Assembly (NCBI GenBank): GCA_963675665.1
Contig: OY776510.1
Coordinates: 4,992,001-5,056,000, forward strand
Direction of reading: 5' to 3'
Source of the DNA: Spirochaetia bacterium
Lineage (GTDB): Bacteria; Spirochaetota; Spirochaetia; UBA9216
DNA: 64,000 nucleotides
Made by a program: the position numbers and the translations under genes. Under the pieces are notes generated by a model that had not been told where the DNA came from, did no database searches, and saw nothing but the letters and a program-made list of their open reading frames with translations. Below are positions 29,420 through 58,949 of this stretch, in pieces (within the stretch, counting starts at the first letter, position 1; each line of letters starts with the position of its first letter).

Positions 29420-29539
29420 TAATGTTTCTCCAGTTTGACAGATATAAATATATGGTATAATATTACCATGCAGTTGGGAAATTTAAAACATTTATTTCTC
29501 ATTGCGTTACTTTAGCCAAATAATTAACAGGAAATTGAC

Positions 29540-31021
29540 ATGAAACAGGACAATATTAAATGCGTGGGCTTCGACTGCGGAAACTCATCTATCAGAACAG
29601 TTATCGGTTTTTATGACGGAGAATCAGTCAGTTCCGAGGTTATTATGCAGGTCCCCAACCGGGCCATAACGGTTAACGGCGTTGACTTCTGGGATATTCT
29701 GAATATATTTGATTCAATGCAGCGAGGACTTAAAACCGCCGAAACAAAATACGGGAAAATTGATTCTGCGGGAATCACAACCTGGGGTATCGATTTCGGC
29801 ATGCTGGGAAAATCCGGACAGCTGATAGGCAACCCTCTCTGCTACAGGAATAAATTCGGGGTAAAAGGCCTTGAATCGGTTGACGAACAGACCAAAAAAA
29901 AGCTCTTTGATCTCAGCGGCATACAGAACCACCCGATGAATTCAATGTACCAGCTGATCGGAATCAGGGAAATGCTGCCCGAATACTACAGTACTGCTGA
30001 AGATATTCTTTTCATTCCCGATCTGCTTAATTTCATGTTCACCGGCGAAAAGGGAACCGAGAACACAATTGCCAGTACTTCACAGCTGCTTGACATGAGA
30101 ACGCGTGATTACTGCGGAGAGATTTTCCAGATAACCGGCCTTGAACGCAGCATGTTTCATCCAGTCATTCCGCATGGAAAGGAACGGGGCAGAATGCTTA
30201 ACTCTATTGCAAATTATCTCGAGATTGATTCCCCGATGCCGTTTATTTCGGTTCCTTCGCATGATACTGCTTCGGCTGTGGTTTCCGTGCCGGCTACTGA
30301 AGAGAATTTTATCTTTATCAGCTCGGGAACATGGTCGCTGATAGGCACGGAACTTGACGAACCTGTCATCAACGACAGAGTGTACGACCTGAGCTTTGCG
30401 AATGAGGGCGGCGCCGCAAATACGATTACACTGCTGAAAAACTCCGCCGGCATGCATATTCTGCAGAACGTTAAAAATGAACTTGAACAGCTTAAAGCCA
30501 GGCCTTATGAATGGCCGGAACTTATAAGCATGGCACAGGGCGCCGGATTCAAAGCAGCGCTTTATGATCCCAATCACCAGTCTCTGTACAATCCGGAGAA
30601 AATGACTGACGCCATTACCGCTCTTACCGGCGAAACTGAAATCGAAAGAATCCTTGCATCGTCTTTTCTCTCGCTTGCCTGCAGTTACCGTGAAGCAATT
30701 ACCGATCTTGAAGAGATCTGTAAACAGGATTTTAATGCGGTCCACATTATCGGAGGAGGAGCCAGAAACGCGTATCTTAACCAGCTTTCCGCGGATATAG
30801 CCGGGAAAACGGTAATCGCAGGTCCGGAAGAGGCTACCTCGCAGGGTGTAATAGCAGCTCAGTTGCTGTATCATGTTCCTGGCGCTGATCTAAAATCCAT
30901 AAGGGCAACAGCCGCCAAAGGTATTGATACCGCGACCTTCACACCCTCGGCGAATTTCCCGCGAGAAGAAACCTACAAAAAATATATCGAAGGGAAAGAC
31001 CGAAGCCAGTCGTTCAGCTGA
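29540..31021 (+). CDS. FGGY sugar kinase, rhamnulokinase/fuculokinase-like
   Basis: DCGNSS.R, TWGIDFG, SHDTASAV, ISSGTWSLIGTE, NEGG, IIGGG, AGP.EAT. Confidence 0.88.
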   Translation: MKQDNIKCVGFDCGNSSIRTVIGFYDGESVSSEVIMQVPNRAITVNGVDFWDILNIFDSMQRGLKTAETKYGKIDSAGITTWGIDFGMLGKSGQLIGNPLCYRNKFGVKGLESVDEQTKKKLFDLSGIQNHPMNSMYQLIGIREMLPEYYSTAEDILFIPDLLNFMFTGEKGTENTIASTSQLLDMRTRDYCGEIFQITGLERSMFHPVIPHGKERGRMLNSIANYLEIDSPMPFISVPSHDTASAVVSVPATEENFIFISSGTWSLIGTELDEPVINDRVYDLSFANEGGAANTITLLKNSAGMHILQNVKNELEQLKARPYEWPELISMAQGAGFKAALYDPNHQSLYNPEKMTDAITALTGETEIERILASSFLSLACSYREAITDLEEICKQDFNAVHIIGGGARNAYLNQLSADIAGKTVIAGPEEATSQGVIAAQLLYHVPGADLKSIRATAAKGIDTATFTPSANFPREETYKKYIEGKDRSQSFS

Positions 31022-39852: not shown

Positions 39853-39990
39853 AGTGGCCTCCGTTCCTTTGTATGTGGCGTGTCTGCGCTTTGCCATTAG
39901 CCATTGTGTAGGCTAATCCACGATTTTGCAAACACGGCGGTCACTTCATATTGTCTAAAAATCCCACTTTCGGGTTATTTGAGGTTCCCT

Positions 39991-41409: not shown

Positions 41410-42021
41410 ATGCAAATGATAATTAAAAGCGATTCAGAAAAACTAAAAAGGCAGTTGGAGTTTATCCGCGAAATAGACAAGGTAAAAAGCATCTTCAGAC
41501 AGACGCCCCTAATCGATAAATCACGCAAGGAAAATGATGCCGAACATTCATGGCACCTTGCAATGATGACAATAGTTCTTGCCGAGTATGCGCCTCCCGG
41601 AACTGATCTCAACCGCGTTATACAGATGGTTCTTGTTCATGATCTGGTTGAGATTGATGCCGGAGACTCCTACCTGTTCGACGAATCTGCACAGCTTGAC
41701 AAGGAAGAAAGAGAGCAAAAAGCAGCTGATAGAATTTTCGGCATCCTGCCTGAAGAAACCGGCTCGGAAATAATGGATCTTTGGCAGGAATTTGAAGAAA
41801 GGAAAACAGATGAAGCACGATTTGCCGCTCTGATGGACAGAATCCAGCCTTTTATTCACAACATCAGCACCGACGGAATTTCATGGCTGGAGCATGGTAT
41901 AAGCCGCTCGCAGGTCCTGGGCCGGATGAGACCCGTTGTCGGGCAGTTCCCCCTGTTCTGGGAATTTCTTACGGCGAATGTCGACGGCGCGGTAAAAAAA
42001 GGATGGCTAAAGCCGGATTAA
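41410..42021 (+). CDS. HD-domain phosphohydrolase (YfbR/HDDC2-like)
   Basis: EIDKVK.I.R, ENDAEHSWH, VHDLVEIDAGD. Confidence 0.9.
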   Translation: MQMIIKSDSEKLKRQLEFIREIDKVKSIFRQTPLIDKSRKENDAEHSWHLAMMTIVLAEYAPPGTDLNRVIQMVLVHDLVEIDAGDSYLFDESAQLDKEEREQKAADRIFGILPEETGSEIMDLWQEFEERKTDEARFAALMDRIQPFIHNISTDGISWLEHGISRSQVLGRMRPVVGQFPLFWEFLTANVDGAVKKGWLKPD

Positions 42022-44655: not shown

Positions 44656-45714
44656 TTATTCGGCATCGGCTCCTTTCTGCTGTTTAAGCGCCGCTTCATT
44701 CTGCTTTCTGAGCTGGAACTGGTCTACAACAACAGCAATTACAACTACAAATCCCTTTATTACCGTCTGCCAGAATGATGAAACACCGACCATTACAAGT
44801 CCGTCGTTAAGAACTCCGAGAATCAGCGCGCCTATTACCGAACCTCCGATCGAACCCCGGCCGCCGGAAAGCGAAGTACCGCCGAGAACGACCGCGGCGA
44901 TTGTGGTCAGCTCATACGATTCGCCCGTGGCAGGATGAGACGCTACCAGCTGGGATGAAAGAACAAGGCCCGTCAGGGCAGCTGTAAACCCCGAGAACAT
45001 ATAGGTTGCCATCTTGATTCTGCGCACCCTTATACCGGAAAGTTTTGCCGCATCGGCATTGCCGCCTACTGCATATACATGGCGGCCGAGCGGAGTTTTC
45101 TTTGAAACGTAAGCAGCTATAACGGCAAGCGCAATTGCAATCCATACTACAAGCGGAATTCCGATTATCGTGCCGGCGCCCAGTTTGGGAAACCCGGTGT
45201 TACCGAGGGAAGGATCACCGATCAGGTTAGGAAAGGTTTTCCCTCCCGAACGGAGCATTGCAAAACCCCGGGCCATATACATCATGCCTAGAGTTGCAAT
45301 AAACGGCGCAACTTTCAAACGGGTAATAAGAAGCCCGTTAACGGCTCCAAGACCCGTACCTATCAGAAGAACAATAATAATGATCATCCCCGTATGGAAA
45401 TAGATAACCAGGTCAAACATCGGCAGTCTCAGCCCTTCAACAATGAAACCGCCGGCAAGCATACCGCACAACCCGGCGATTGAACCGACCGAGAGATCAA
45501 TTCCGTCGCCGATTATTACAAATGTCATACCCATTGCAAGAATTGTCCATATTGCCGAATGCTTGGCCATTGCAACCAGGTTTGCAAACGAAAGAAAATT
45601 CGGAGCTATAATTCCAAATACTACCAATACGGCGAAAAATGCAATCAGTGTTCTTAGTTTAAGAAGGAGCATTCCAACGGAGAAATCCCCTTTCAATTTA
45701 TTTTTGGTAACCAT
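44656..45714 (-). CDS. Monosaccharide ABC transporter permease (RbsC-like)
   Basis: GMTFVII..GIDLSVGS, PFIATLG, YAVGGN..AAKLSGI, YEL..IAAVVLGGTSLSGGRG. Confidence 0.93.
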   Translation of the reverse strand: MVTKNKLKGDFSVGMLLLKLRTLIAFFAVLVVFGIIAPNFLSFANLVAMAKHSAIWTILAMGMTFVIIGDGIDLSVGSIAGLCGMLAGGFIVEGLRLPMFDLVIYFHTGMIIIIVLLIGTGLGAVNGLLITRLKVAPFIATLGMMYMARGFAMLRSGGKTFPNLIGDPSLGNTGFPKLGAGTIIGIPLVVWIAIALAVIAAYVSKKTPLGRHVYAVGGNADAAKLSGIRVRRIKMATYMFSGFTAALTGLVLSSQLVASHPATGESYELTTIAAVVLGGTSLSGGRGSIGGSVIGALILGVLNDGLVMVGVSSFWQTVIKGFVVVIAVVVDQFQLRKQNEAALKQQKGADAE

Positions 45715-45730
45715 AAGTCTGTTCCTCCTT

Positions 45731-47287
45731 TTATGCTATTGAAGTAATTCCATGACCAATTTCCGAAGCCTTTCGTACCTTTTCTTCAGTAGCTTCCGAA
45801 CGGTCAAATACTCCGGTCACCTTACCCTTTGAAAGTACTATGATTCGGTCGGACATCGAGAAGATTTCTTCCAGTTCCGACGAGACAAGAACAATACCGA
45901 ATTTCTCATTCGCCATGCTGTTTGTAATTTCAAAAACATCGGATTTTGCTCCGACATCAATTCCCCGGGTAGGCTCGTCCATCAGCAGTACTTTCGGTTT
46001 TGTCAGAAGACCCTTGCCTATAACCACTTTCTGCTGATTTCCTCCGGAAAGGGCGTTAATGGATATCTGCGGACTGGCAACCTTGATGGCAATCTGCCTG
46101 ATCGTTTCAATAACAGATTCATTCTCTTTCTCTTTATTTATATGAAAAATTCTGGTAAATGCTTTTAAACTCGACATGGTCAGATTGTGATCAACAGCAA
46201 GGTTCAGAAACAAGCCTTCTCGTTGCCGCTCTTCAGGAATAAGAACCAGCCCCCGCTCTATTCGCCCTTTTGTATCAATTCCGTCTATCCGTTCGCCCGA
46301 CAGCCATATTTTACCGGTAGTTTTTTCCATTGCCCCCATCAGGCTTTCGAGCAGTTCGGTCCGGCCGGCCCCCATCAGGCCGTAAATTCCCAGAACTTCG
46401 CCTTCCTTTACCTCGAAAGAAACATTATCAAGGGTATATCCGCCCCCGAATCGGGGCAAGGTCATATTTTCAGCCCTGAGAAGGACTTCGCCGGTTTGGT
46501 GAGCTTCACCCTGGAAAAACTTCTTCGGATCCCGTCCCACCATCTTTTCAATTATTTCATGCATCTCCATAGACGCAATTTCATTAAAATCTATCAGATT
46601 CGCATCTCTCAATATTGTTATGTAATCTCCGATCTCCTTAATTTCTTCAAGCCGGTGTGATATATACACAATGGCAACATTCTGCGATTTGAGATCATCA
46701 ATTACATCAAACAGGACCTTTACCTCCTGTTCGCTCAACGAAGACGTTGGTTCGTCCATTATCAGTATTTTCGGTTCATCGATCATGGTTTTTGCTATTT
46801 CCACAATCTGCTGCTGTCCAAGCCTCAGGTCACGCACAAGAGTCTCCGGTTTTATGTCCTGACCCAATCTTCTCAGAACTTCTACAGCACGTTCTTTCTG
46901 GCTTCCGTGGTCTATACTAAAGGCGTTTTTCTTCAATTCCTTGTTCATGAAGATGTTTTCAGCAACATCAAGATCGGCAAAAAGGTTAAGCTCCTGATGC
47001 ACTATACCTATTCCCTTCTGAACGGCATCACGGGTTGAGGAAAAAGAAACAACCTCCCGCGAACCGTTATCATCGTACATGATAAGTTCGCCGGCCGTCG
47101 GCTGCTCAATTCCGGCAATTATTTTCATAAGGGTGGATTTGCCTGCGCCGTTTTCTCCTACAAGAACATTTATCTTTCCCTTGTATATCTTGAAATCAAC
47201 ACAGTTTAATGCTTTGGTTCCGGGATATACCTTGTCTATCCCGACGGCTTCCATAATCAGCCCTTCTTTTGGTTCAATCATAAGCAA
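45731..47287 (-). CDS. Monosaccharide ABC transporter ATP-binding protein (RbsA-like)
   Basis: GENGAGKSTL, DEPTSSL, LSGGNQQK, DEPTRGIDVGAK. Confidence 0.95.
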   Translation of the reverse strand: MLMIEPKEGLIMEAVGIDKVYPGTKALNCVDFKIYKGKINVLVGENGAGKSTLMKIIAGIEQPTAGELIMYDDNGSREVVSFSSTRDAVQKGIGIVHQELNLFADLDVAENIFMNKELKKNAFSIDHGSQKERAVEVLRRLGQDIKPETLVRDLRLGQQQIVEIAKTMIDEPKILIMDEPTSSLSEQEVKVLFDVIDDLKSQNVAIVYISHRLEEIKEIGDYITILRDANLIDFNEIASMEMHEIIEKMVGRDPKKFFQGEAHQTGEVLLRAENMTLPRFGGGYTLDNVSFEVKEGEVLGIYGLMGAGRTELLESLMGAMEKTTGKIWLSGERIDGIDTKGRIERGLVLIPEERQREGLFLNLAVDHNLTMSSLKAFTRIFHINKEKENESVIETIRQIAIKVASPQISINALSGGNQQKVVIGKGLLTKPKVLLMDEPTRGIDVGAKSDVFEITNSMANEKFGIVLVSSELEEIFSMSDRIIVLSKGKVTGVFDRSEATEEKVRKASEIGHGITSIA

Positions 47288-47290
47288 CCT

Positions 47291-47980
47291 CTACTCTTTA
47301 ACTTCAATCACAGCAGGGGTCAGTATAATATCTTCGACCGCATCAGATTGTTCAAGTTTGAACGCTGCATAGAAGCTTACTGTTTTTCCGGAAAGGTTTT
47401 CCAGGTCAAGCGGTTCAACAACTACCTTTTTCATTTTATTATTCAACTCATCAGCAAGGCTGGCAAACTGCAGCTGGTTTCCGACTTCGGAAAATTTGAT
47501 AAAATCCAGCGAATCACGAAGCGCGGTCTTTTTTATAACCGGACCTACCTGAATGGCTGTATCCCTTACGCCGTCGGCAGGTACAAGATCTATGATAAGA
47601 AGTCCGTTTCTCGAGCTGCTGTCATATTCAAGAACAACTGCTTCACCTTTTACCTTAAACGCGAAACTTGCGGCTCCCTGAGTTTTTGTCAAACCATAAT
47701 CAGCTGTAGCTTTCTCCCTGTCGGACTTCAGCGCGTTGATAATAATATCGATATCTACACATTCTTCCTTAAAAGCCGGTACAAGCCTGGAATCCCAGAT
47801 TCCTTCTACATATGAAACAGGCTCAAACTGGCTTCCGCTTTTTGTCCAGGTTGAATACTCTCCCTTTACTTCTTTTGCTTCGACTTCACTTAATTTCCTG
47901 ACAGTACATGATGTAAAAGCTAAAAAGATGACTGCAATCAAAGTAAGGAACAGCAGACCTTTCTTATTCGTTTCGATCAT
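47291..47980 (-). CDS. DUF2291 family lipoprotein
   Basis: Start MIETNKK; lipobox FTS-C; YV..IW; IQVGPVI..TALRD...FI.F....NQLQFA.LA.ELN; located between the SBP and ATPase genes. Confidence 0.82.
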   Translation of the reverse strand: MIETNKKGLLFLTLIAVIFLAFTSCTVRKLSEVEAKEVKGEYSTWTKSGSQFEPVSYVEGIWDSRLVPAFKEECVDIDIIINALKSDREKATADYGLTKTQGAASFAFKVKGEAVVLEYDSSSRNGLLIIDLVPADGVRDTAIQVGPVIKKTALRDSLDFIKFSEVGNQLQFASLADELNNKMKKVVVEPLDLENLSGKTVSFYAAFKLEQSDAVEDIILTPAVIEVKE

Positions 47981-48059
47981 ATTTTGACTCCAGATATATT
48001 GATTTACATTAAAAAAGGAATCCGGTCGAAACCGGACTCCCCTTATTCTATCATGAGAA

Positions 48060-49019
48060 TTAATTGATTGGTGCGAAACCTTTCCATTTGGTCGCATTTT
48101 CGGGAGTAATGAGGAAGCAGTCGTTAAGAATTTTTTCTTCACTCATGCCGGTTGAACCGGTTTTGATATATTTGTCGGCAAGTTCTACTGCCATTTCCGC
48201 GTTCTTTGCATTCGGCTGCATAACAGTTCCGTCGATTTTACCCTGAAGGATCGACTGAAGAACATTATCGTTTCCATCAAAACCCATTACAACTATATTG
48301 CCCTTTCCGGCTGCATCAATTGCTGCCTGTGCGCCGAGAGCCATTGTGTCGTTACCACAGATAATACCGTTAATGTCGGGATTTGCCTGAAGTATTGATT
48401 CAATATCAGCATATGCTTCTGTCTGGCTCCAGTTTGCTGTTTCTCTTGCAGCCATTACCATGTCAGGATACTGATCTATGATATTGTGAAAACCTTTGGA
48501 TCGGACACCTGCATTTGTATCTGATTCTTTTCCAACCAGCTCTACATATTTGCCTTTTTCTCCGAGAAGCGAAACAAACCTTTCAGCGCCGAGTTTTGCC
48601 CCCTGGAAGTTATTTGAAATAAGCTGAGCCTTTGCAATCCCGGTTGCATTTATCTCTCTGTCCATACAGAAAACAGGAATACCTGCATCTGTGGCTCTCT
48701 GAAGGTTATTCGGTGAAGCATCGGCATTTGCGATATCAATGATAATAGCTGCAGCATTTCTTGCAATAGCTGTATCGATTATATCACTTTCAGCATTAGG
48801 ATCATCACCATGAACCGCAAGCAGCGTTTCATAACCAAGAGATTCTGCTTTGGCTTTAGCAGCATCAGCTTCCGCTGTAAAGAAAATATTGTCTTTATCA
48901 GGGGTTACTATTACCATAAGATTTGATGACGCTTCAGCTTCCTGCTGACCTCCAGCGAACACCAGTCCTGCACCCAACAGGATTGATACAAGTGCGAAAA
49001 TAAGAATTTTCTTAGACAT
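48060..49019 (-). CDS. Sugar/polyol ABC transporter substrate-binding protein (RbsB-like)
   Basis: Peripla_BP fold motifs N.FF, GIPVFCMDREI, SNNFQGA, GKESDTNAGVRS, GNDTMALGA, GFDG. Confidence 0.93.
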   Translation of the reverse strand: MSKKILIFALVSILLGAGLVFAGGQQEAEASSNLMVIVTPDKDNIFFTAEADAAKAKAESLGYETLLAVHGDDPNAESDIIDTAIARNAAAIIIDIANADASPNNLQRATDAGIPVFCMDREINATGIAKAQLISNNFQGAKLGAERFVSLLGEKGKYVELVGKESDTNAGVRSKGFHNIIDQYPDMVMAARETANWSQTEAYADIESILQANPDINGIICGNDTMALGAQAAIDAAGKGNIVVMGFDGNDNVLQSILQGKIDGTVMQPNAKNAEMAVELADKYIKTGSTGMSEEKILNDCFLITPENATKWKGFAPIN

Positions 49020-49293: not shown

Positions 49294-50199
49294 TCAAACA
49301 GCTCCAATACCAATATCCAGACCAAGCATCCGGCCATAATCCGTATAGCCTGCGCATTCCGTTTTTTCAACATTGCTGAAAGATGCCCAGGGATATTCAA
49401 AACCGAGACCATCATATTTTCCTGATCCAAGCCGGTGAAAAGGCAATAATTCAACTTTTCTGATTGCGGTTTCCCGATAAATAAAATCAAGCATATGCTT
49501 AACGGTTTTTTCAGAATGGTTTACTCCGGGAATTACCGGGATACGAACCACAACATTATCATGGCAACGGCTGATCCCGGTTATATTCGCAAGAATTTTT
49601 TCCATACCGACTCCGGTATATTTCAGATGTTCAGCGTTGTCAATGTGCTTGAGATCTACATAAAAAAGATCAATTACATCAAGCAGGCTTTCGATTATCT
49701 GCCAGTCTACTGCAGCTGCTGTTTCAATTGCGGTATGTATACCTTCAGCTCTGCACCTTTCGGCAATTTCCCTGACCTCCCGGTGCTGCAGAAGGGGCTC
49801 TCCGCCGGAAAAAGTTACACCGCCCCCGGATTCCCTGTAGAAATGCCTGTCGGCGAGAACAACCTTCATAAGCTGCTCAATATCATAGTCCTGCCCCACT
49901 ACCCTTCGGGCATCAAAAAAACAGGCATCTGCGCATCTTCCACAACCCGTGCAGGCATCATGATCAGTTATAAAGCCGTATTTTTCCGAAAGAAAAACCG
50001 CGCCCTCAGGACAGACTTCAATGCATTTTCCGCAGCCGCTGCATTTATTTTTATAGTACATCAGCTGCTTTTTGAAACTCCAGGATTCCGGGTTCTGGCA
50101 CCAGCTGCATCTGAGGTTGCAGCCCTTGAAAAACAACACTGTTCGGATCCCGGGGCCGTCTTTCGTTGCATAACGCTCTATGTCAAAAACATTTATCAT
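49294..50199 (-). CDS. Glycyl-radical enzyme activating enzyme (radical SAM with ferredoxin insert)
   Basis: DGPGIRT.LFFKGCNLRCSWCQNPES; two CxxCxxCxxxC; GGVTFSGGEP. Confidence 0.95.
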   Translation of the reverse strand: MINVFDIERYATKDGPGIRTVLFFKGCNLRCSWCQNPESWSFKKQLMYYKNKCSGCGKCIEVCPEGAVFLSEKYGFITDHDACTGCGRCADACFFDARRVVGQDYDIEQLMKVVLADRHFYRESGGGVTFSGGEPLLQHREVREIAERCRAEGIHTAIETAAAVDWQIIESLLDVIDLFYVDLKHIDNAEHLKYTGVGMEKILANITGISRCHDNVVVRIPVIPGVNHSEKTVKHMLDFIYRETAIRKVELLPFHRLGSGKYDGLGFEYPWASFSNVEKTECAGYTDYGRMLGLDIGIGAV

Positions 50200-51605
50200 A
50201 TTGTTGCAGGTTCAAAATCGCTCATCGCCGGCCCGCCCAAAAGCTGATGGTTTATATCCACGTTGCTGCGGAACTGGGCAATTCTTTCAACTGATGAGGC
50301 GTTATGCGCCCCCTGCTCCAGAGTTGTCTCGCCGGTGGAAACCACTCCTATTCCGGCAACAATACAGCACCCCTTATACCATCTAAGCATATTCAGAAGA
50401 GGGTTCTCGGGAGATCTGTCCAGAACAGTCCTGGAATCTATTAATCCGACGCGGGGATTAAGATATATGGCTTCAGCATCAATAGGATAAAGAACTGTAT
50501 GGTTATCCTGGGTATATACAACATTACTGTTGTCTCCGTAAAGAACCTGCTCGCCGTATTTTTCAGCGAGCACCGCCATACCCTCTGCATTCCCCAGAGG
50601 GTTCTGGGTTATCATACATGTATTCTGGTTCATATTATTATAAACAAGTTTATGAATGTGCAAATCAAGCGAGTCGTCATCAGAGGGTTTTATACTTTCC
50701 CGTCTAAGCGGAAAATCCATATTCTCGGGAACTGCGGACATGGGACAGTAAACCATTTCATCAGCGGAAATTCGCTGGCTCATCGAACCGGTGCCGTACC
50801 CGCTTATAAGATTATTATAATTATAGTTAAGACGCTGGGTAAAATCAGCTACCATTGCCTCATCGGCGACATCTCTCCGGGACAGTTCCGCTTCATTCAG
50901 CGGCTCGGGCCTGATACCGTAAAAAACGGCCGGTGTTTTATCATAAATATCGGAAAGCAGTTTAACCACATTAATTCCGCGGCGCCGCAGGTGCATCAGC
51001 GACATTGAACTTATCTCAATAGTCGTAAGCCTGTAAAGCCCGTCTTCAAGTGAATTCCCCCTGGCAAAGGGGCCATGGCCCCTTACAATGGTAAGCCTGT
51101 TATCAGCAAGGTATTTCGGCAGCCTTTCGGTCATCTCCGCAGACCCCACCGGTTGTACATATGTGCCGCAACGTACTTCTCCGACAATGAAAGATCCGTA
51201 GAAATCAACCGGATGAAACATGAATTCTTCACGCCCTTTATCATCCTCGCCGAGATATTTCATAAAAAGCTCTTTTTCTTTCGTATCGAAAGATACCGAA
51301 GAGGTATAAATGCCATGACTGTGAACTACTGCATTGGTTCCAGGATGCATAAGGATTTTACGGTGATTATCAGACTCTGTTGAACCGCGTGTATCACCCC
51401 AGGACACCCTGGAAAAGCGGACAGGTACAATATCATGCGGAACAAGAGCGCCAATCTGAGAACCGCTTGCAGTTATGTAAAATAAATCCGGGTTCTCGGG
51501 ATCCCTGACTGAAAGATTACCGCTATGAGTATTATTGGCATTAACGCGCCCGAGCGCCTCACCTATTGTTCGAAGATTCTTATATGCCCATTCGTGTGAT
51601 GTCAT
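50196..51605 (-). CDS. Tandem class II aldolase/adducin-domain protein (second domain lacks metal ligands)
   Basis: Domain 1: SGNLSVR, ITASGS, STE...H, VVHSH, RGHG; domain 2: GSMSQR, SLDLHIH, MITQNP, AGIG; shared F/L-x-P-V/I-D motif. Confidence 0.78.
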   Translation of the reverse strand: MTSHEWAYKNLRTIGEALGRVNANNTHSGNLSVRDPENPDLFYITASGSQIGALVPHDIVPVRFSRVSWGDTRGSTESDNHRKILMHPGTNAVVHSHGIYTSSVSFDTKEKELFMKYLGEDDKGREEFMFHPVDFYGSFIVGEVRCGTYVQPVGSAEMTERLPKYLADNRLTIVRGHGPFARGNSLEDGLYRLTTIEISSMSLMHLRRRGINVVKLLSDIYDKTPAVFYGIRPEPLNEAELSRRDVADEAMVADFTQRLNYNYNNLISGYGTGSMSQRISADEMVYCPMSAVPENMDFPLRRESIKPSDDDSLDLHIHKLVYNNMNQNTCMITQNPLGNAEGMAVLAEKYGEQVLYGDNSNVVYTQDNHTVLYPIDAEAIYLNPRVGLIDSRTVLDRSPENPLLNMLRWYKGCCIVAGIGVVSTGETTLEQGAHNASSVERIAQFRSNVDINHQLLGGPAMSDFEPATI

Positions 51606-53632
51606 TATGCTGCCCCCTCCGCTTTACTTACGCCGACCAATTCGTCAATTTGCAGTTTCTCCAGGGTTTCGGATATCGGAATGCCGTCCGGACTCCAACC
51701 CATTGCTTTATAATATTCCGTATGCATTTGTCCGAAAGCTTTCCGCTCACAAACTACCTTTCGTCCTTCTACTGTTGCAGGTTTTGTGTAAAACCGTTCA
51801 GGCAGCCAGTCATCATCCGTCGTCAGGCCGCAGGCAACATTGAACAGTCTTTCAAGCGTGTAGACCCTGTGACCTATGCGCTGCAGTTTACCGGCATTTA
51901 ATTCCATTCCTGTAATTGCGTTAAGCAGTTTTGCGTAGTCATCCAGAGGTATTGAAAACGAGGTGTATACGCATGAACCTATTGTATCAAAAACAGTATT
52001 GCGGAATGCGGCATTTTTCAGCACCAGCGGCGTACCTTCTATTCGACCGCCGTCCCATTCTCCGTACCCTGCGGCATACGCCTGCGCCGCCATGTAACCG
52101 CCCTCAAGGTGGCAGCCGCCGCGGTTGCTCATCTCATAGCTTAGAGCCTGACTGAATGAAGTTCTGGGATCATATGCGGGAAGTTCCTGTTTTTTCACCG
52201 TCATCGAGAGTTCAGGGTGGCCGTACCGTTCACAAAACCGAAAAGAGCCTTCGGCAAGATACCCGCCTATACCCTTTCGCTCTGCAATCATGTTTATCAG
52301 CGGAAGCAGAATTTCTTTGTTTCCGAATACCGGCTCTCCGACTTCTTTTACAAATAACGCCGAATCAGACATGAACTGTTGTTCTGCTTCATTCAAATTG
52401 TCCAAGGACTTGCAGGTTTCATATAAATCAACGAATGCGGATATTGTCCCGCCCAGGCTGATGGTATCCATGCCCAGACGGTTCGACGCATTGTTGGCAA
52501 GCGCTATAAGCGGAAGATCATAGATTGACAGATTAGCGCCCAGCAATGTTACGGATTCAAATTCCGGGCCTTCACCCTTGTCGAATTCATTTCCGTTCTC
52601 ATCATAGATCGTTATTTTTCGTTTGCAGGCTACAGGGCAGTTGTAGCAGGTACCTTTTTTTGCTTTTATACCGAACTCTCCGTCATGTTTAATATCATCG
52701 TAATAACGGAGAGCTTCACCGCTGATTCTGTCGATATCACTGTCGTTATGAGTTGTGTCTCTCATATTGTTATGAGGCAACTGACCATGATTATGCACCA
52801 TTCCCATAAGGCCAAGCGAGCCGAGAGAGGAAAGAATACCGTAGTCGACCTCTTTTCTGGTCAGTTTCCCGACATCCAGCATTATTTTGGCCTTGAATGC
52901 CGCGCTTTTACTGTTTTTTATACTCAGCATATCGGGATCAGCAACCTTTATTTCGGTTTCCGAATCGGGGACTACGGCAATCGCATGCAGGTTCTTTGAT
53001 CCCCAGACAGCTCCGCAGCCGTTTCGTCCAAAAGCGCGGCCTTTTTCATTTATTACAGCGGAAAACCTCACAAGGTTCTTTCCCGCCGGACCTATCGACA
53101 TTACACGAACACCCTCGGGTAATTCCGAAGCGATACCGTCGTTAGACTCTTCGGTTGAAGCTTCAGCATAAGCTGACGCATCCCTGACTGTAACATTGTC
53201 CTTCTGCACTACAAGATAAACCGGCTTCTCAGCCTTTCCGGTAATAAAAAGAACATCAATACCTGTCTTTTTCAGGGCCACACCCCAGTATCCGCCTGAA
53301 TTGCTGCTTCCGAGACCGCCGGTCAGCGGTGATTTGAAATTCATATGGAAACGGCCCGAACCCGGCATTTTAGTCCCGGTTGCGGGAGAGGTCGTTATAA
53401 TAACCGGATTATCCGGAGATAATCCGTCAATATCGCTAAAAGGATTGCCGTACTTCCCGGAAAGAGAAGCAAAATAACGATACAGCAACGCAATACCCAA
53501 CCCCCTTCCACCGAAATACCTGATCGCTATTTCAGGATCAAGCGGTTCGAATTTGCATTCACCTGAACTTAAGTCTATAAATGCAATTCTTCCCATAAAA
53601 CCAAGGGGCAGTCGTTTCTCTGCTGTTTTCAT
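51605..53632 (-). CDS. Aldehyde:ferredoxin oxidoreductase (W/Mo-pterin AOR family)
   Basis: GGRGLG, KSPLTG, SNSGG, IGPAG, GAVWGSKNL, CYNCPVAC, GPEFE, GMDTIS.G, NRGGCH, YY..MGW...G.P; exact start (53632 or 53641) uncertain. Confidence 0.92.
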   Translation of the reverse strand: MKTAEKRLPLGFMGRIAFIDLSSGECKFEPLDPEIAIRYFGGRGLGIALLYRYFASLSGKYGNPFSDIDGLSPDNPVIITTSPATGTKMPGSGRFHMNFKSPLTGGLGSSNSGGYWGVALKKTGIDVLFITGKAEKPVYLVVQKDNVTVRDASAYAEASTEESNDGIASELPEGVRVMSIGPAGKNLVRFSAVINEKGRAFGRNGCGAVWGSKNLHAIAVVPDSETEIKVADPDMLSIKNSKSAAFKAKIMLDVGKLTRKEVDYGILSSLGSLGLMGMVHNHGQLPHNNMRDTTHNDSDIDRISGEALRYYDDIKHDGEFGIKAKKGTCYNCPVACKRKITIYDENGNEFDKGEGPEFESVTLLGANLSIYDLPLIALANNASNRLGMDTISLGGTISAFVDLYETCKSLDNLNEAEQQFMSDSALFVKEVGEPVFGNKEILLPLINMIAERKGIGGYLAEGSFRFCERYGHPELSMTVKKQELPAYDPRTSFSQALSYEMSNRGGCHLEGGYMAAQAYAAGYGEWDGGRIEGTPLVLKNAAFRNTVFDTIGSCVYTSFSIPLDDYAKLLNAITGMELNAGKLQRIGHRVYTLERLFNVACGLTTDDDWLPERFYTKPATVEGRKVVCERKAFGQMHTEYYKAMGWSPDGIPISETLEKLQIDELVGVSKAEGAA

Positions 53633-53680
53633 AGTTTCCACCTTATCTATAAAATTAACGGAGTTTGGTGCTTAAGGGTA

Positions 53681-54691
53681 TTAACCTATCAGTTTTCTGC
53701 AGGTTTCACCTATTTTCAGCTGTGTCGGTACAATTATCCGCTTTTCTTCCTTATCTGTATTATCTCCCCGGATCTTCTTCATCATGATATTGAAAGCACA
53801 CTGACAGAGTTCAGGGATATTCTGCTCTACAGTGGTCAGTTTCGTATTAAAAATTGTGTAATAGGGAATATTGTCAAAACCTATCAGAGAGATATCTTCC
53901 GGCACCGAAATATTTAAAAGCTTTGCCTTATTCAATGCACCAAGGGCCATTTGATCATTCGCGCTGAAAATAGCTGTAGGCCATTCTGACAGGGTCAGAA
54001 AATATTCCATTGCGTTTATTCCTGATTCAAAGCGTAAATCTCCGCGGCTGACCAGTTCCTGATTGAAAGAAACATCGTAAGCTTTAAGTGCGTCGCAATA
54101 ACCACGGAATCTCTCCTCTGCCGACGGCCATTTTGCCGGCCCGCTGATAAAACCTATTCTCCGGTGATTAAGCTGCAGAAGGTATTCTACAGCCTGGCGC
54201 GCTCCGTTATAGTTATCGCTGCTGACTTCAGACACAACGCCTTCCTCGCTGTGCCTGTCGATAAGCACCGTTTCGGTATACTGACGCGCCCGCTCTATCG
54301 TGTTCATCGAAATTCCCTCGGCAAATATTATCCCGCCTATTTTATTGTCCAGCAGATAATCAAGATAAATCCTCTCCTTCTCCTCATTATTTTCCGTGTC
54401 GCATACCGTCAGCGGTATCCCCTGCTCCATGGCAAGATGACTTATCCGGCGCACAATCATGGCAAAAAACGGGTTCAGAATATCAAAGACAAATAATGCA
54501 AGTCCCCAGCGCGATTTGGAACTCAACCTTGATGCAAACGGGTTAGGTTTGTAACCAACCTCACGCATGGTGTTTTCTATCTTTTCACGCAACGGCGCGG
54601 CAACAATATCCGGATTATTTAACACCCTCGAGACGGTTGCAGGAGATGTTCCGCAGAGTTTTGCTATTTCCGTTATCGTATATTTAGACAA
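53681..54691 (-). CDS. LacI family transcriptional regulator
   Basis: TITEIAKLCGTSPATVSRVLN, Y.PN..A, NPFF, PTAIF..ND..A.G, VPEDISLIGFD. Confidence 0.95.
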   Translation of the reverse strand: MSKYTITEIAKLCGTSPATVSRVLNNPDIVAAPLREKIENTMREVGYKPNPFASRLSSKSRWGLALFVFDILNPFFAMIVRRISHLAMEQGIPLTVCDTENNEEKERIYLDYLLDNKIGGIIFAEGISMNTIERARQYTETVLIDRHSEEGVVSEVSSDNYNGARQAVEYLLQLNHRRIGFISGPAKWPSAEERFRGYCDALKAYDVSFNQELVSRGDLRFESGINAMEYFLTLSEWPTAIFSANDQMALGALNKAKLLNISVPEDISLIGFDNIPYYTIFNTKLTTVEQNIPELCQCAFNIMMKKIRGDNTDKEEKRIIVPTQLKIGETCRKLIG

Positions 54692-54777: not shown

Positions 54778-55461
54778 CTAGCTGAACAGATCTTTGTTTT
54801 TCTGACCGTAATGATTTTTGGCAAAGTCCTGCATTGCCTTAATTTCATCCTGGCTGAATTTTCGGATGTTATTGCCGAGCAGATTGGCAAACAAAAGAAT
54901 CTGCGCATTTTTCTCAAGCACCATGCTCACTTTTAAAGCCATCTTCATGTCGGTTCCGACAAGCAACGCGCCGTGTCCCGGAAGAAGAACTGCATTATTA
55001 TTCCCGAGTCCGGCAACCGCCACATCTCCGAGAGCCTCAGTTCCCGGAAGTTCATAGGGGCTTGCTACCTTTATTTCAGCTCCTACTATCTGGATAAAAT
55101 CTTCGCTTACCCCGATGAGGTTCTGCCCTGCTACTCCAAAAGCTGTTGAGTAGACCGGATGCGTATGAATGACCGCATTAACGTCCGATCTTGCATTAAA
55201 CACTGCAAGATGCATATGCTTTTCAATTGAAGGCTCTGCTTCTCCGTCGACAATATTCAGCTCAGTATCCATTACAACAACATGCTGCGGTTGTATCTTG
55301 GAATAATCCATTCCGCTCGGGCTTATATAAACCAGATTGGTTTCCGGGTCGCGCGCGCTTATATTTCCCCACGTTCCGACGGTGATTCCTTTAGCGACCA
55401 TCTCAATTCCTGTATCAACAATAAGCTGCTTATAGCTGCCTTTGATACGTCTATCCATCAT
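54778..55461 (-). CDS. Class II aldolase/epimerase (FucA/AraD-like)
   Basis: GTWGNISARD, ISPSG, PSIE..MH, VIHTHP, LPGHG: intact Zn site. Confidence 0.9.
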   Translation of the reverse strand: MMDRRIKGSYKQLIVDTGIEMVAKGITVGTWGNISARDPETNLVYISPSGMDYSKIQPQHVVVMDTELNIVDGEAEPSIEKHMHLAVFNARSDVNAVIHTHPVYSTAFGVAGQNLIGVSEDFIQIVGAEIKVASPYELPGTEALGDVAVAGLGNNNAVLLPGHGALLVGTDMKMALKVSMVLEKNAQILLFANLLGNNIRKFSQDEIKAMQDFAKNHYGQKNKDLFS

Positions 55462-55585
55462 ATAACTCCTAATGATTTAATATTATCATACTTATGGTAT
55501 ATTTCTACCTATTTTTACACATTTTTGTCAATATAGTCTCAACTTCTTTATTTACATTTTATTTTTACCATATTATAATCCAATT

Positions 55586-56362
55586 ATGAGTAATAAACAA
55601 AAGCGCCTCGAAGTGCTGAAAAGCATGCTGAAAGTCGAACATTCAATGAAAATCTCGGACATTTCGAACCGGATCGGCGTATCTCCAATGACTACCAGAC
55701 GCGATATTGAAATACTTGAACACGAAGGCTTTATAAAAGTTCTTCACGGAGCCGTCATATATAATGCCGCTGCAGAACCCGGCGGCCTGTCTGATTACAT
55801 GCTGACGGTTGCCGAAAGCAGGCAGAAAGAAAAGAAACAACATATTGCTCATCATGCGTTATCGTATATCGAAGATAATGATATCATTTTTCTCGATGCC
55901 GGATCAACGACAGAATCACTTGCCCGAAGGCTTCCCGAAAATCTGAAGCTTACAGTTATATGCTATACCATCAACATTTTTCTTGCTGTTGCAGATCATC
56001 CAAATATTACAGTCATTCTGCTAGGAGGAACTTACAACCGCGAAACAATGATACTGGAACAGAAAGGCGTTTCTCCCATACTTCAGAACAACCGGACAAA
56101 GAAGGCTTTTATTTCAGCAGGAGGTTTTCATACAAAACTCGGAGTCACCTGCTCAAATGAAAACGAGCGCCTGACAAAGCAAACAGCAGTCAATCAAACT
56201 GCCGAGTCTTTTCTACTGATTGATTCATCAAAATTCGGTGAAGTGAATTCATGTTTCTTTGCAGGGACCAATGATTTCGATCATATAATTACCGACAATA
56301 ATATCCCCGATAATTACAGAGAAGAATTAGCCGGATTCGATACTGAAGTACATTTCGTCTGA
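55586..56362 (+). CDS. DeoR/GlpR family transcriptional regulator
   Basis: VSPMTTRRDI..L; IFLDAGSTT; LIDSSKFG. Confidence 0.93.
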   Translation: MSNKQKRLEVLKSMLKVEHSMKISDISNRIGVSPMTTRRDIEILEHEGFIKVLHGAVIYNAAAEPGGLSDYMLTVAESRQKEKKQHIAHHALSYIEDNDIIFLDAGSTTESLARRLPENLKLTVICYTINIFLAVADHPNITVILLGGTYNRETMILEQKGVSPILQNNRTKKAFISAGGFHTKLGVTCSNENERLTKQTAVNQTAESFLLIDSSKFGEVNSCFFAGTNDFDHIITDNNIPDNYREELAGFDTEVHFV

Positions 56363-56440
56363 TAAGATTAAAAACCGTCTGAATGCTGCATATTTTCAAT
56401 TGCAGATTCATGTTTACTGTGGTATTCTTTAAAAACGGTC

Positions 56441-56454
56441 TGAAACCGTTTTCA
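56441..56454. promoter_or_regulatory. LacI-family operator upstream of the glycyl radical enzyme
   Basis: TGAAACCGTTTTCA just upstream of the AGGAG RBS. Confidence 0.75.
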
Positions 56455-56477
56455 TAAAGGCTTTATAGGAGATTGAT

Positions 56478-58889
56478 ATGAATACACGAATTGTAAAATT
56501 AAGAGAAGGACTCTTTGAAAATATCCCGGAAATATGCCCGGAGAGGGCGGTAATTTTTACCGAAGAAATGAAAAGAAGCGAAGGGGAACCCATTGTAAAG
56601 CGAAGGGCACAGGCTTTGTATGAAGTCCTTGATAAAATCACAATATTCATAAGAGACGGCGAACTTCTTGTCGGAAACCAGGCCTCAACAGTGCGCGGAG
56701 CTCCGGTTTTCCCCGAATACTCCGTCGACTGGATTGTAGATGAATTCAACGGTAAACCCTACCACTTTGCAGAGAGACCCTGCGATCAGTTCCGGTACAC
56801 AGAAAAAACAAAAAAACTGGTCCTTGAAACAATTGAATACTGGAAAAACAAAACCTTGATAAAAAACGTCTGGAGCAGCCTTCCGGAAGAAGCAAGAACA
56901 GCCTGGGAGATAAATGCCATCGACGACACATGGTGTGCTGCCGCCGGCCTTGGAAATGTTCTGCCTGATCACTCAATGGTTCTCACACACGGTCTTGAAT
57001 ATGTTATTGCAAAGGCTGAACAAAGAATTCAGAACCTCGACCTTACCGAGCCCGGCACAATCAGTCAGTACTGGTTTCTTCAGGCCGTGGTAACGGCAAA
57101 TAAGGCTGTAATAAACTTTGCCTCAAGGTATGCTGCTCTTCTGGAGAAGGAAGCAGCCTCATGCACAGACGCCGTCCGGAAAAATGAGCTTCTGGCTATG
57201 GCCGCAAACTGCCGGCGTGTTCCTGCAAAACCGGCGGAAACCTTCTGGCAGGCCGTTCAGACCGTATGGTTTATCCAGCTTATACTTCAGATAGAAACAA
57301 ACGGTCATGCAATATCCCTGGGACGCTTTGATCAGTACCTGTATCCGTATTACCGCAACGATATCGACAGGGGAATAATAACAAAGGATCAGGCGCTTGA
57401 GATAGTAGAATCGTTCTTTATAAAGGCGAATGAAATAAACAAACTTCGGTCATGGCCTGACAGCGAATATTTTCCCGGATATCATCTTGCGGAAAACCTC
57501 GCCATCGGCGGACAGCTTGCCGACGGAACCGATGCGGTAAATGATCTGACGCATATTATACTTGAGGCGACCGGAGATCTGCGCCTGACAAAACCGTCGG
57601 TTTCACTTAAATGGTACGAAGGAACAAGCGATGAGTTTATGCACAAAGCCCTTGAGGTAATAGATAAACATAAAGGCGGACAGCCGGCGCTTTACAACGA
57701 TCCGGGCGTAATGAAAATACTTGAGGGTATGGGGGTAGCAAAAGAAGATCTTTACACCTGGGCGCCTGTAGGCTGTATTGAAGCGTCGATACCGGGCAAA
57801 TGGGATTTTGCCGCAAAGGGTTCATGGCTCAACGTCGGTAAGGTTTTCGAAATGACGCTTAATAACGGAACTGATCCCAATACCGGAATATGCCTGCTGC
57901 CCGGAGACGGTTACCTGTCCGGGTTTAAAAGCAGCGCTGAACTGATGGCAGCCTTCAAGAAACAGCTTCATTACTATATGGAACTGCAGGTTATCGTAGA
58001 ACACATCAGCGACGAGATGCACATTCTGCATGACCAGAACGCATTCAGATCATCGCTTGTTCATGACTGTATTGAACGGGGGAAATCACTTATCGAAGGC
58101 GGAGCTGTTTATACCGCCGACGGAGGTCCTACAGCGGGCTCCATTTCGGTTGGAAACGCATTCGCAGCAATAGAATATGCCGTTTTCGACAAGAAACTGC
58201 TCACAGCCGCCCAGATAGCGCACGCGCTTGAAACCAATTACGAAGACAGTACAACATCCCCCTCCGGCGAAGAAATCAGGCAGCTTCTTCTCAATAAAGC
58301 GCCTAAATTCGGAAATGATGATGATTATGTTGATAAATGGGTAGTGGAAATAACCGACTACCTGGGCTCAAGCTACCATAAGGATTTCAAGAGTTCCAGA
58401 TACGGCAAGGGCCCGGTCCCGGCCACTTTTGCTCTCAGCATGAGTTCGGTTACCGGAAACGTGGCGTTCGGAAAGTCGGTGGGAGCCCTGCCTGACGGCC
58501 GCAAAGCCACACTGCCGGTAAACAACGGTGTATCTCCAGCAAACGGAACAGAAAAAACAGGCCCTACAGCCCTGATAAATTCAGAAGGAAAACTGCCGAG
58601 CTGCTGGTGTCAGAAGGGAACAATTTTCAACATGAGGCTTACTCCTGAAACATTAAAAACCCCGGAAGGCCGTAACAGAGCCCTTGCTCTCGTAAAAAAT
58701 CACTTTAAGAATAATCAGTTTCATATACAATTCAATGTATTAAGCGATAAAACCCTCCTCGAAGCACAGCAGAAACCTGAAGAATACCAGGATCTGATGG
58801 TACGCATCTCGGGATACAGCGCGTTTTTTACACCGCTGAACGAAGAACTACAGCGGGATGTGATTGAAAGAATGAAGTTTGATTTTTAA
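56478..58889 (+). CDS. Glycyl radical enzyme (PFL2/YbiW/diol-dehydratase superfamily), substrate unknown
   Basis: Cys loop VGCIE (single Cys, so not PFL); Gly loop DLMVRISGYSAFF; GRFDQYLYPY; APKFGNDDDYVD. Confidence 0.93.
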   Translation: MNTRIVKLREGLFENIPEICPERAVIFTEEMKRSEGEPIVKRRAQALYEVLDKITIFIRDGELLVGNQASTVRGAPVFPEYSVDWIVDEFNGKPYHFAERPCDQFRYTEKTKKLVLETIEYWKNKTLIKNVWSSLPEEARTAWEINAIDDTWCAAAGLGNVLPDHSMVLTHGLEYVIAKAEQRIQNLDLTEPGTISQYWFLQAVVTANKAVINFASRYAALLEKEAASCTDAVRKNELLAMAANCRRVPAKPAETFWQAVQTVWFIQLILQIETNGHAISLGRFDQYLYPYYRNDIDRGIITKDQALEIVESFFIKANEINKLRSWPDSEYFPGYHLAENLAIGGQLADGTDAVNDLTHIILEATGDLRLTKPSVSLKWYEGTSDEFMHKALEVIDKHKGGQPALYNDPGVMKILEGMGVAKEDLYTWAPVGCIEASIPGKWDFAAKGSWLNVGKVFEMTLNNGTDPNTGICLLPGDGYLSGFKSSAELMAAFKKQLHYYMELQVIVEHISDEMHILHDQNAFRSSLVHDCIERGKSLIEGGAVYTADGGPTAGSISVGNAFAAIEYAVFDKKLLTAAQIAHALETNYEDSTTSPSGEEIRQLLLNKAPKFGNDDDYVDKWVVEITDYLGSSYHKDFKSSRYGKGPVPATFALSMSSVTGNVAFGKSVGALPDGRKATLPVNNGVSPANGTEKTGPTALINSEGKLPSCWCQKGTIFNMRLTPETLKTPEGRNRALALVKNHFKNNQFHIQFNVLSDKTLLEAQQKPEEYQDLMVRISGYSAFFTPLNEELQRDVIERMKFDF

Positions 58890-58913: not shown

Positions 58914-58949
58914 AAAAGCCCCGCCGGTTATCAGGTCGGGGCTTTTTTT
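58914..58949 (+). terminator. Intrinsic (probably bidirectional) terminator after the GRE gene
   Basis: AAAAGCCCCG...CGGGGCTTTTTTT between convergent genes. Confidence 0.8.

Follow-up and report, generated by a model that had tools for sequence, protein, structure and literature searches.

Which substrate does a glycyl radical enzyme (GRE), an oxygen-sensitive catalyst, act on when its radical machinery is intact and its pocket is unlike that of any studied member of the superfamily? The question is raised by an open reading frame at 56478..58889 (+) of a 64,000-nucleotide stretch of contig OY776510.1 from a Spirochaetia bacterium (the window), which encodes an 803-aa protein with PFL-like and Gly_radical domains. 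GRE functions have been assigned clade by clade, and the substrates found so far, choline, hydroxyproline, sulfonates and anhydro-sugars among them, each brought an unexpected anaerobic pathway to light. The present gene belongs to a large clade (at least 120 clusters at 58% identity or above) that combines a conserved pocket with a concrete candidate substrate class: the substrate was narrowed, not proven, to a pentose-like sugar of the apiose uptake family. The reaction, which we propose from sequence and gene context, would be that of a radical C-O lyase or isomerase of new specificity in the anaerobic catabolism of apiose or a related sugar, a tentative reading to which we give slightly less than an even chance. 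D-Apiose is a widespread plant cell-wall sugar, and if this reading is correct a radical apiose route in sediment and gut anaerobes would add to pectin carbon turnover and might show new GRE chemistry at a quaternary carbon.

The product of the gene scored 611 bits against the Pfam PFL-like domain and 97.9 bits against Gly_radical, and TIGR01774 was the only NCBIfam model, a subfamily model, whose cut-off it exceeded (706 vs 678). All seven motifs that a sequence-only reading of the window had pointed out were found in the 803-aa product: AAGLGN (residues 155-160), NGHAIS (275-280), YFPGYHLAENL (331-341), VGCIE (431-435, nt 57768-57782), FAAKGSWLN (444-452), LSMSSVTGN (653-661) and RISGY (776-780, nt 58803-58817). 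RISGY, a glycyl radical motif of the RVxG[FWY] type, lies near the C-terminus and retains the radical glycine, G779. The Cys loop (C433-I434-E435) was also intact, with C433 aligned by HMMER to the catalytic Cys of propanediol dehydratase (PD) and YbiW, and it presents the Cys-x-Glu motif of GRE 1,2-eliminases and isomerases, which the available excerpts of two papers describe as defining for these enzymes (PMC13450708; PMC7077986). An AlphaFold (AF2) model of the GRE reached a pLDDT of 93.6, and Foldseek returned TM values of 0.94-0.97 to PD, glycerol dehydratase (GD) and YbiW; over PD, GD, YbiW, CutC and HypD the values were 0.93-0.97 at 29-37% identity, the closest solved relatives being 35-38% identical. 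Since the model superposes on all of these enzymes, the fold is that of an ordinary GRE barrel and the pocket alone is unusual. Taken together, motifs and model are best explained by a functional glycyl radical enzyme of the PFL2 1,2-eliminase/isomerase type, for which activation is predicted.

A search of 5.8 billion proteins returned at least 120 clusters of homologues at 58-89% identity, which carried generic names only, and clade members came from Spirochaetia, Bacillota (Petroclostridium) and Atribacterota. Within the class, orthologues at 71% identity or more were present in 12 of 300 other genomes. A scan of metagenomes by generic GRE patterns gave mostly relatives at 30-39% identity, with contigs L052-L055 alone being informative. 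Residues G159, N160, N275, G276, S280, F332, Y335 and N340 were retained in 120 of 120 homologues, as were C433, E435, W442, D443, K447, S656, V658 and G779, while A278 (118/120), H336 (105/120) and H277 (102/120) were less strict; because these residues are fixed across the homologues, the pocket differences described below are not random. In a quick maximum-likelihood tree of 31 rows, for which the tool warned of long branches, the clade (25 rows, stem of 1.57 changes per site) was sister to YbiW plus a YbiW-like paralogue (SH-aLRT 99), and PflD-type sequences fell outside this grouping. In agreement with this placement, an insertion of about six residues, RYGxGPxxxx, was common to the GRE and YbiW and missing in PflD and PD. 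The GRE is 38.0% identical to E. coli YbiW and 33.3% identical to PflD, and its sequence is best explained if it belongs to a large clade without characterised members, the sister group of the YbiW 1,5-anhydroglucitol-6-phosphate C-O lyases.

To set the register of the pocket, we aligned the GRE with solved structures by HMMER and with E. coli YbiW and PflD by MAFFT. These residue-level alignments bore out the register that the sequence-only reading had drawn by eye, together with its claim that the pocket differs from those of the diol dehydratases and YbiW, with Asn160, Ala278, Lys447 and a Ser at the His, Ser, Asp and Tyr positions. The AAGLGN region corresponds to NGVGH and GGIGH in the propanediol dehydratases 5i2a and 9rco, respectively, and to SGDAH in YbiW; the His of the diol-dehydratase GxGH motif is thus absent from the GRE and replaced by Asn160, as it is in 120 of 120 homologues. 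NGHAIS aligned with SGHSIS in PD and NGHSVS in YbiW, the Ser of GHS giving way to Ala278, while at the position 14 residues after the Cys the GRE has Lys447, PD an Asp (GWHDAAFFN) and YbiW a Thr (YRCTGM). LSMSSV aligned with AGLYPV in PD and AGTSSI in YbiW, with Ser in place of the Tyr of GLYP, and YFPGYHLAEN with GFAGYSLFQN in PD and ASAGSPLYQN in YbiW. We take the GHS Ser, the Cys+14 Asp and the GLYP Tyr to be the defining residues of the GD/PD family, presumably Ser282, Asp447 and Tyr640 in GD numbering, and this Ser/Asp/Tyr set was absent from the GRE at the positions aligned with 5i2a and 9rco. For GD itself, the accessible part of a review states that His164 protonates the leaving hydroxyl, and also names Glu435 (PMC13450708). 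Judging from the alignments, the signature formed by Asn160, Ala278, Tyr335-His336, Asp443 and Lys447 is specific to the GRE clade.

The closest known enzymes combine likeness in the scaffold with difference in the pocket. PD and GD (PDB 5I2A/5I2G, 9RCO, 1R8W) are the top structural matches (TM 0.94-0.97, 35-37% identity) and have the CxE loop, the Gly loop and the Phe332 and Tyr335 positions in common with the GRE, but differ by the His to Asn160, Ser to Ala278, Asp to Lys447 and GLYP Tyr to Ser replacements, and the GRE stands outside a microcompartment context. YbiW, a GRE isomerase (PDB 8ID7, 8YJN; homologue 6XS4), is the best solved sequence match (E 1e-164 to 1e-168), with a shared Cys-x-Glu loop, NGH motif and RYGxGP insertion and a TM of 0.97. 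It is, however, only 38% identical, its AGTSSISAN stands opposite LSMSSVTGN, and its three pocket motifs SGDAH, SAGSPLYQN and YRCTGM are all replaced in the GRE, by AGLGN, YFPGYHLAEN and FAAKG. The two loci share the logic of sugar uptake, radical C-O cleavage and an aldolase (chemistry as given in the excerpted text of PMC13450708), although uptake and aldolase are a phosphotransferase system and FSA for YbiW and an ATP-binding cassette (ABC) importer and a class II aldolase here. PflD, a 1,5-anhydromannitol-6-phosphate C-O lyase, is a member of the same superfamily and shows the CxE loop, but is 33% identical, has no RYGxGP insertion and carries QGH and NASS pocket motifs; the GRE reached 486 on the corresponding model, PRK09983, against a cut-off of 1109.

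The sequence-only reading had further proposed a different substrate, and this is well supported by the absence of any equivalog assignment, the 35-38% identity to solved relatives, the invariant pocket and the presence of separate YbiW and PflD paralogues. No NCBIfam equivalog cut-off was reached, whether for HpfG (514/1000), HypD (509/1100), the PflD type PRK09983 (486/1109), HpsG (486/1000), CutC (476/1050), indoleacetate decarboxylase (394/1100), HPA decarboxylase (289/1150) or PFL (148/994). According to the excerpts available, eliminases have nothing strictly conserved beyond the Cys and Gly loops and each pocket is fitted to its substrate (PMC7077986), and a pocket that is fixed but different is therefore good evidence for a different substrate. 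The review of Imrich et al. (June 2026, PMC13450708) lists, in its available part, the characterised C-O eliminases GD, PD, HpfG, HypD, HpyG and HpzG, the C-N eliminase CutC, the C-S eliminases IslA, IseG and HpsG, and the isomerases HplG, YbiW and PflD; no enzyme of the present kind is among them, and the same part states that whole GRE clades are without experimental validation. Our literature search returned no characterised member of the clade and no paper linking a glycyl radical enzyme with apiose. The genome that carries the window (5.15 Mb, one contig) has about ten GRE genes, including a YbiW-type paralogue at 2043348-2045720 (55% identical to E. coli YbiW, with SGDAH, SAGGPLYQN and YRCTGK, adjoining a DeoR gene) and a PflD-type paralogue whose neighbours are an ABC importer, an ROK kinase and a DeoR gene. 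Because both are present, other genes already provide for the anhydro-sugar functions that are known. Two assignments were rejected on other grounds: the Arg/Gln/Arg anchor of the sulfonate lyases, as described in the accessible part of PMC13450708, has no counterpart at the aligned motifs of the GRE, and domain scans of the window gave no shell-protein domains for a microcompartment-associated diol dehydratase.

The evidence on the kind of substrate comes from an ABC importer encoded nearby at 44656..49019 (-). Its genes stand in the order RbsB-type substrate-binding protein (SBP, 48060-49019, -), DUF2291 lipoprotein (47291-48142 as listed, -), ATPase (45731-47287, -) and permease (44656-45714, -). 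The SBP matched PDB 4ry0/5ibq (Rhizobium etli RHE_PF00037) with an E value of 1e-106 and 59% identity, and the titles and molecule names of these entries give a ribose transporter binding protein and nothing more. The order SBP-DUF2291-ATPase, an unusual one, is the same in the window and in the D-apiose cluster of E. coli SE15, where a kinase and the two transketolase subunits have as gene neighbours an ABC ATPase, a DUF2291 protein and a 'ribose' binding protein, the last 38% identical to its counterpart in the window. Excerpts of a study of this type of cluster name its genes aplK, aptA and aptB and report that strains with the cluster grow on D-apiose (PMC13001218). Transketolase-type D-apiose clusters in general (apsI, aplK, aptA, aptB and an ABC importer; MetaCyc PWY-8089) have the same SBP-DUF2291-ATPase-permease architecture as the GRE locus, but differ from it in that no transketolase genes stand beside the GRE in the window; none of aplK, aptA and aptB was found in its 64 kb.

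The link extends to other spirochaetes. Genomes G071, G241 and G035 have an SBP-DUF2291-ATPase-permease-isomerase operon whose binding protein is 58-60% identical to that of the window, and AptA-like, AptB-like and AplK-like genes either diverge from this operon or come after it; against the best reference, from E. coli or L021, identity is 52-58% for the AptA-like and 49-54% for the AptB-like products. Transketolase, isomerase or AplK-like genes without an importer of their own directly adjoin the GRE module in 8 of 28 loci encoding clade members (L009, L018, L020, L021-L024 and L028); many of the 28 lie on short contigs, and this and all other neighbour counts are lower bounds. In the window's own genome, a transketolase-type cluster at 2541773-2547380 comprises a DeoR gene and three genes for AplK-like (37%), AptB-like (46% against the E. 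coli protein) and isomerase-like (26% against that of L021) products, and the only apiose-type binding protein of that genome at E <= 1e-60 is the one at the GRE locus. Of the 300 other genomes of the class, 10 had a binding protein at 79% identity or above, and each of these was one of the 12 that carry the GRE. At ten positions which we take, from E. coli RbsB, to contact ribose, the residues N F F D R R W N D Q were found in 8 of 8 GRE-linked and 3 of 3 transketolase-linked binding proteins, and the comparison suggests a neutral pentose-like sugar as the predicted imported ligand. As for known routes, a 2026 paper on ApnO, in the part available, counts four for apiose and apionate, one through transketolase and three oxidative, mentions no radical enzyme there, and notes no further biochemical analysis of D-apiose routes since 2018 (PMC13753588).

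In the reaction that we propose, a neutral pentose-like sugar would enter through the adjoining SBP-DUF2291-ATPase-permease importer, and the leading candidate is D-apiose or a compound derived closely from it (such as apulose, or a branched or furanose pentose of another kind), because the importer is paralogous to those of transketolase-type D-apiose clusters. The Cys433 thiyl radical would take a hydrogen from a carbinol carbon of the sugar, Glu435 would deprotonate the hydroxyl at that carbon to give a ketyl radical, the C-O bond of the neighbouring carbon, beta to the radical (hydroxyl or ring ether), would break, and Cys433 would give the hydrogen back to yield a keto sugar. We infer this mechanism by analogy with the known eliminases and isomerases; as the general-acid His of GD is gone, either another residue (perhaps Lys447, His336 or His277) must aid the leaving group or the leaving group must be a better one. 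The product would then be phosphorylated by an FGGY ketose kinase and cleaved by a FucA-like class II aldolase, with the resulting aldehyde passing in the window's genome to a tungsten-type aldehyde:ferredoxin oxidoreductase (AOR); in other genomes the product might go to transketolase or to a xylulokinase-type kinase.

The genes found around the GRE in the 28 loci bear on this scheme. A LacI-family regulator was its most constant neighbour (23/28), followed by the activase in 20 loci, DUF4037 and DUF4125 in 12 each, an orthologue of the DeoR regulator (at least 54% identity) in 11, the binding protein (at least 70% identity) likewise in 11, an orthologue of the class II aldolase in 10 and DUF2291 in 9. 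Rhamnulokinase-like and xylulokinase-type FGGY kinases were each present in 2 of the 28, and no FGGY kinase was seen in the available sequence of 16 loci that have the GRE with activase and/or LacI, often with the importer too. An AOR was confined to the closest relatives, with a gene counted in 1 of 28 loci (L005) and a truncated one at the end of L001. Three ketose-processing gene sets adjoin the GRE family: a xylulokinase-type kinase alone (L027 and L007, where the kinase scores 466 and 438 bits, respectively, on the xylulokinase model, above its cut-off of 380), a rhamnulokinase-like kinase with a FucA-like aldolase, and an apulose-type transketolase. Ketoses are what all of these partners process, and a keto sugar is therefore the simplest product to assume for the GRE.

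A linear 2-pentulose as product would explain all three sets, and would arise if the enzyme were a radical 'linearising' isomerase that turns a branched pentose into a straight-chain one. Hydrogen would be taken from the hydroxymethyl carbon of apulose or apiose, and the neighbouring acyl or carbon group would undergo a 1,2-shift through a cyclopropyloxy radical or by fragmentation and recombination; rhamnulokinase-like kinase and FucA-like aldolase would then give dihydroxyacetone phosphate (DHAP) and glycolaldehyde from the 2-pentulose, with the AOR at hand in the window. A radical 1,2-shift is without precedent in the GRE superfamily, and we regard this version as quite improbable. If true, it would be the first carbon-skeleton mutase among GREs and a fifth, strictly anaerobic, route for D-apiose.

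The kinase and aldolase invoked for the proposed pathway were examined individually. The window encodes a rhamnulokinase-like FGGY kinase at 29540..31021 (+), 25 kb from the GRE, which reached 331 bits on the rhamnulokinase model (cut-off 528). Related kinases lie much nearer to the GRE elsewhere: within the GRE operon in L012 (Petroclostridium; 49% identical to that of the window), about 1 kb away in G071 and G095 (56%), and 5-14 kb away in G241, which has two copies (44% and 54%); on a metagenome contig (L055) a kinase 44% identical to that of L012 directly follows GRE and activase. The window kinase gene is divergent from an enoyl-CoA hydratase/isomerase gene (span 28640-31021), as is its counterpart in G091 (L044:7981-10387), and isochorismatase, EamA, GH3, DUF1007 and NicO genes lie near both in the same relative order; because this pairing and neighbour order are common to the two genomes, the kinase may have a role outside the GRE pathway. 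The class II (FucA/AraD-family) aldolase-like protein (54778..55461, -) retains the Zn ligands His92, His94 and His155 as well as Glu73 in FucA numbering, is without the FucA Tyr113, and has the AraD-shared motifs TWGN, PSGxDY and a C-terminal HYGQ. Its sequence is compatible with an aldolase and with an epimerase alike.

Several observations weigh against a C-O lyase or isomerase for apiose or a related sugar. In the GRE eliminations known so far, the carbon beside the new carbonyl ends up as CH2 or CH3, and such a product is no obvious substrate for a DHAP-dependent FucA-type aldolase; AraD-like binding by the aldolase, a kinase acting before the GRE, or a reaction other than simple elimination would each be a way round this problem. 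The D-apiose ligand of PDB 5IBQ is presumed, the entry names giving only a ribose transporter binding protein. E. coli RbsB shares 9 of the 10 contact positions (Phe for Trp), so these positions cannot separate apiose from ribose-like sugars. G071 and G241 have a canonical transketolase cluster with its own importer in addition to the GRE cluster, and since both clusters occur together the GRE-linked importer paralogue may bind a different sugar. In subclade B (L012, L027, L007 and a 56% paralogue from the window's genome), the binding proteins are just 18-32% identical to that of the window and DUF2291 is missing. The aldolase was missing from the available sequence of 18 of the 28 loci, and the kinase from most. 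Finally, kinase and GRE do not always travel together: G091 has the kinase at 80% identity and no GRE match at E <= 1e-150, and G232 has the GRE, its kinase match being just 34% identical with a stop codon and no intact orthologue.

One alternative is a phosphorylated substrate, the sequence-only reading having named an anionic or phosphorylated compound as a possibility. The FGGY kinase would then act first and the GRE on a sugar phosphate, with Lys447 binding the anion; phosphate itself might even leave, in which case the loss of the general-acid His at 160 would be accounted for. DeoR regulators usually sense sugar phosphates, and one flanks the GRE gene; kinase genes adjoin the GRE in at least six genomes, an invariant Lys447 stands in place of the diol-dehydratase Asp and Asn160 in place of the protonating His of GD, and YbiW and PflD act on 6-phosphates (PMC13450708, as excerpted). 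On the other hand, query position 330, a putative phosphate contact, is Lys or Arg in the four YbiW/PflD-type sequences (E. coli YbiW, E. coli PflD and both paralogues) and Glu in 77 of 122 clade members, the Arg/Gln residues of the sulfonate lyases are found at none of the aligned motifs, the binding protein is of a neutral-pentose type, and 16 of 28 loci have the GRE module with no FGGY kinase in the available sequence. FGGY kinases do adjoin the GRE in several genomes, but on balance we consider a phosphorylated or otherwise anionic substrate unlikely. The sister relationship to YbiW and the common RYGxGPxxxx insertion speak instead for a variant 'anhydroglycolysis' enzyme, a ring-opening C-O lyase for another anhydro-alditol (unphosphorylated, or of another stereoisomer or ring size), whose 1-deoxy-ketose product would be phosphorylated by the FGGY kinase at its sole primary hydroxyl and split by the class II aldolase, in an AraD-like mode, into hydroxyacetone and a phospho-aldehyde. 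The aldolase is indeed AraD-like at TWGN, PSGxDY and HYGQ, and the PflD-like paralogue of the same genome sits with an ABC importer, an ROK kinase and a DeoR gene, which makes ABC-plus-kinase versions plausible here. Yet all YbiW pocket motifs (SGDAH, SAGSPLYQN, YRCTGM) are replaced, the importer is of the apiose/ribose and not the hexose type, and a dedicated YbiW-type enzyme already exists in the genome; nor, to our knowledge, are natural anhydro-pentitols or other anhydro-hexitols abundant substrates. An anhydro-alditol lyase is accordingly doubtful in our view.

The FucA-like aldolase, the rhamnulokinase-like kinase and the AOR in or near the locus would also suit a dehydratase that acts on a small molecule arising from the aldolase reaction (ethylene glycol, 1,2-propanediol, glycerol, or the hydrate of glycolaldehyde or lactaldehyde), in parallel with the fucose and rhamnose pathways, where a GRE diol dehydratase follows an aldolase; PD and GD are, moreover, among the closest folds. 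We nevertheless hold this to be very unlikely. The GD/PD pocket residues are replaced, and a larger ligand is argued for because two bulky residues have become small (Phe to Ala338, Tyr to Ser). The window scans showed no genes for a microcompartment shell or an aldehyde dehydrogenase, and the constant partners of the GRE are LacI and a sugar importer, not the aldolase. Set against these alternatives, the reading as a C-O lyase or isomerase for apiose or a related sugar remains the one that we favour.

With regard to the control of the gene, a DeoR-family regulator is encoded directly upstream of the GRE (55586..56362, +), itself preceded by a promoter-like site at 55551-55579 (11/12 match in a consensus scan), and a LacI-family regulator lies at 53681..54691 (-). 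At 56441..56454 (+), 24 nt upstream of the GRE start codon, the pseudo-palindrome TGAAACCGTTTTCA resembles a LacI/cre-type operator, and we take it to match the cre consensus. It is enclosed by a perfect inverted repeat, AAACGGT-N5-ACCGTTT (56433-56451), which is the sole perfect match in the window. In 7 of 26 related loci the half-site TGAAACCGTTT is found again upstream of the GRE, 37-40 nt from its start, and two further loci have it with one mismatch. Judged by these sites, the LacI regulator probably controls the GRE gene through the operator-like site upstream of it. A ribosome-binding site, AGGAG (56467-56471), lies 6 nt before the ATG, and a terminator-like hairpin followed by a T run was found by consensus scan at 58924..58939 (+), 35 nt past the stop codon.

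The remaining genes of the locus lie on the minus strand. A radical SAM GRE activating enzyme (49294..50199, -; 348 bits on TIGR02494 against a cut-off of 174) is followed towards the GRE by a 469-aa protein whose N-terminal part is a class II aldolase domain and whose C-terminal part, about 250 aa, is of no known kind (50196..51605, -), and by the tungsten-type AOR (51605..53641, -). The 469-aa fusion, whose aldolase domain keeps its metal ligands, has an AOR as its partner in the window and again in L001 (L001:13694-15699), where enoyl-CoA hydratase and RbsD/FucU mutarotase genes come after the fusion gene. The DUF2291 frame as listed begins with GTG and overlaps the end of the binding-protein gene by 83 nt, its Pfam match starting from residue 70, and the real start is probably at an internal codon. 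Just beyond the permease, two proteins are encoded at 42018-44476 (-), one of which combines FGE-sulfatase and Big_2 domains while the other, of 372 aa, is without a family match. An IS110-family transposase of 382 aa is encoded at 38749-39897 (-); one of the same length adjoins the YbiW-like paralogue (L032:12531-13679, -), and the element is probably multicopy in this genome.

In 12 of the 28 loci, a pair of genes for DUF4037 (with an N-terminal nucleotidyltransferase-like motif, read by eye) and DUF4125 lies between the activase and binding-protein genes, examples being L021:4746-6240 and L041:3929-5420. The pair may be a GRE accessory system. A role as essential pathway enzymes was rejected, as the pair is missing from the window locus and encoded elsewhere in the same genome (1331715-1332254). 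A DUF4125 gene (L029:13394-13957) also adjoins two activase genes of an unrelated GRE, at 28% identity.

Further GRE genes of the window's genome (L030-L037) lie at 166335-168734, 175173-177029, 392428-393945, 1399947-1401947, 1971492-1973834, 2043348-2045720 (the YbiW-type gene), 2052879-2055200, 4317636-4319975 and 4818480-4820363. This is an unusually large set of radical sugar enzymes, most of the GREs standing beside sugar importers, and it would make the genome a good model for radical sugar catabolism. One of them is the 56% paralogue of the same clade, which is accompanied by LysR, ABC importer and activase genes. Two others, at 36% identity, adjoin Zn-dependent alcohol dehydrogenase genes, one of them together with a GH88 gene and an ABC importer, and another directly adjoins a second AOR.

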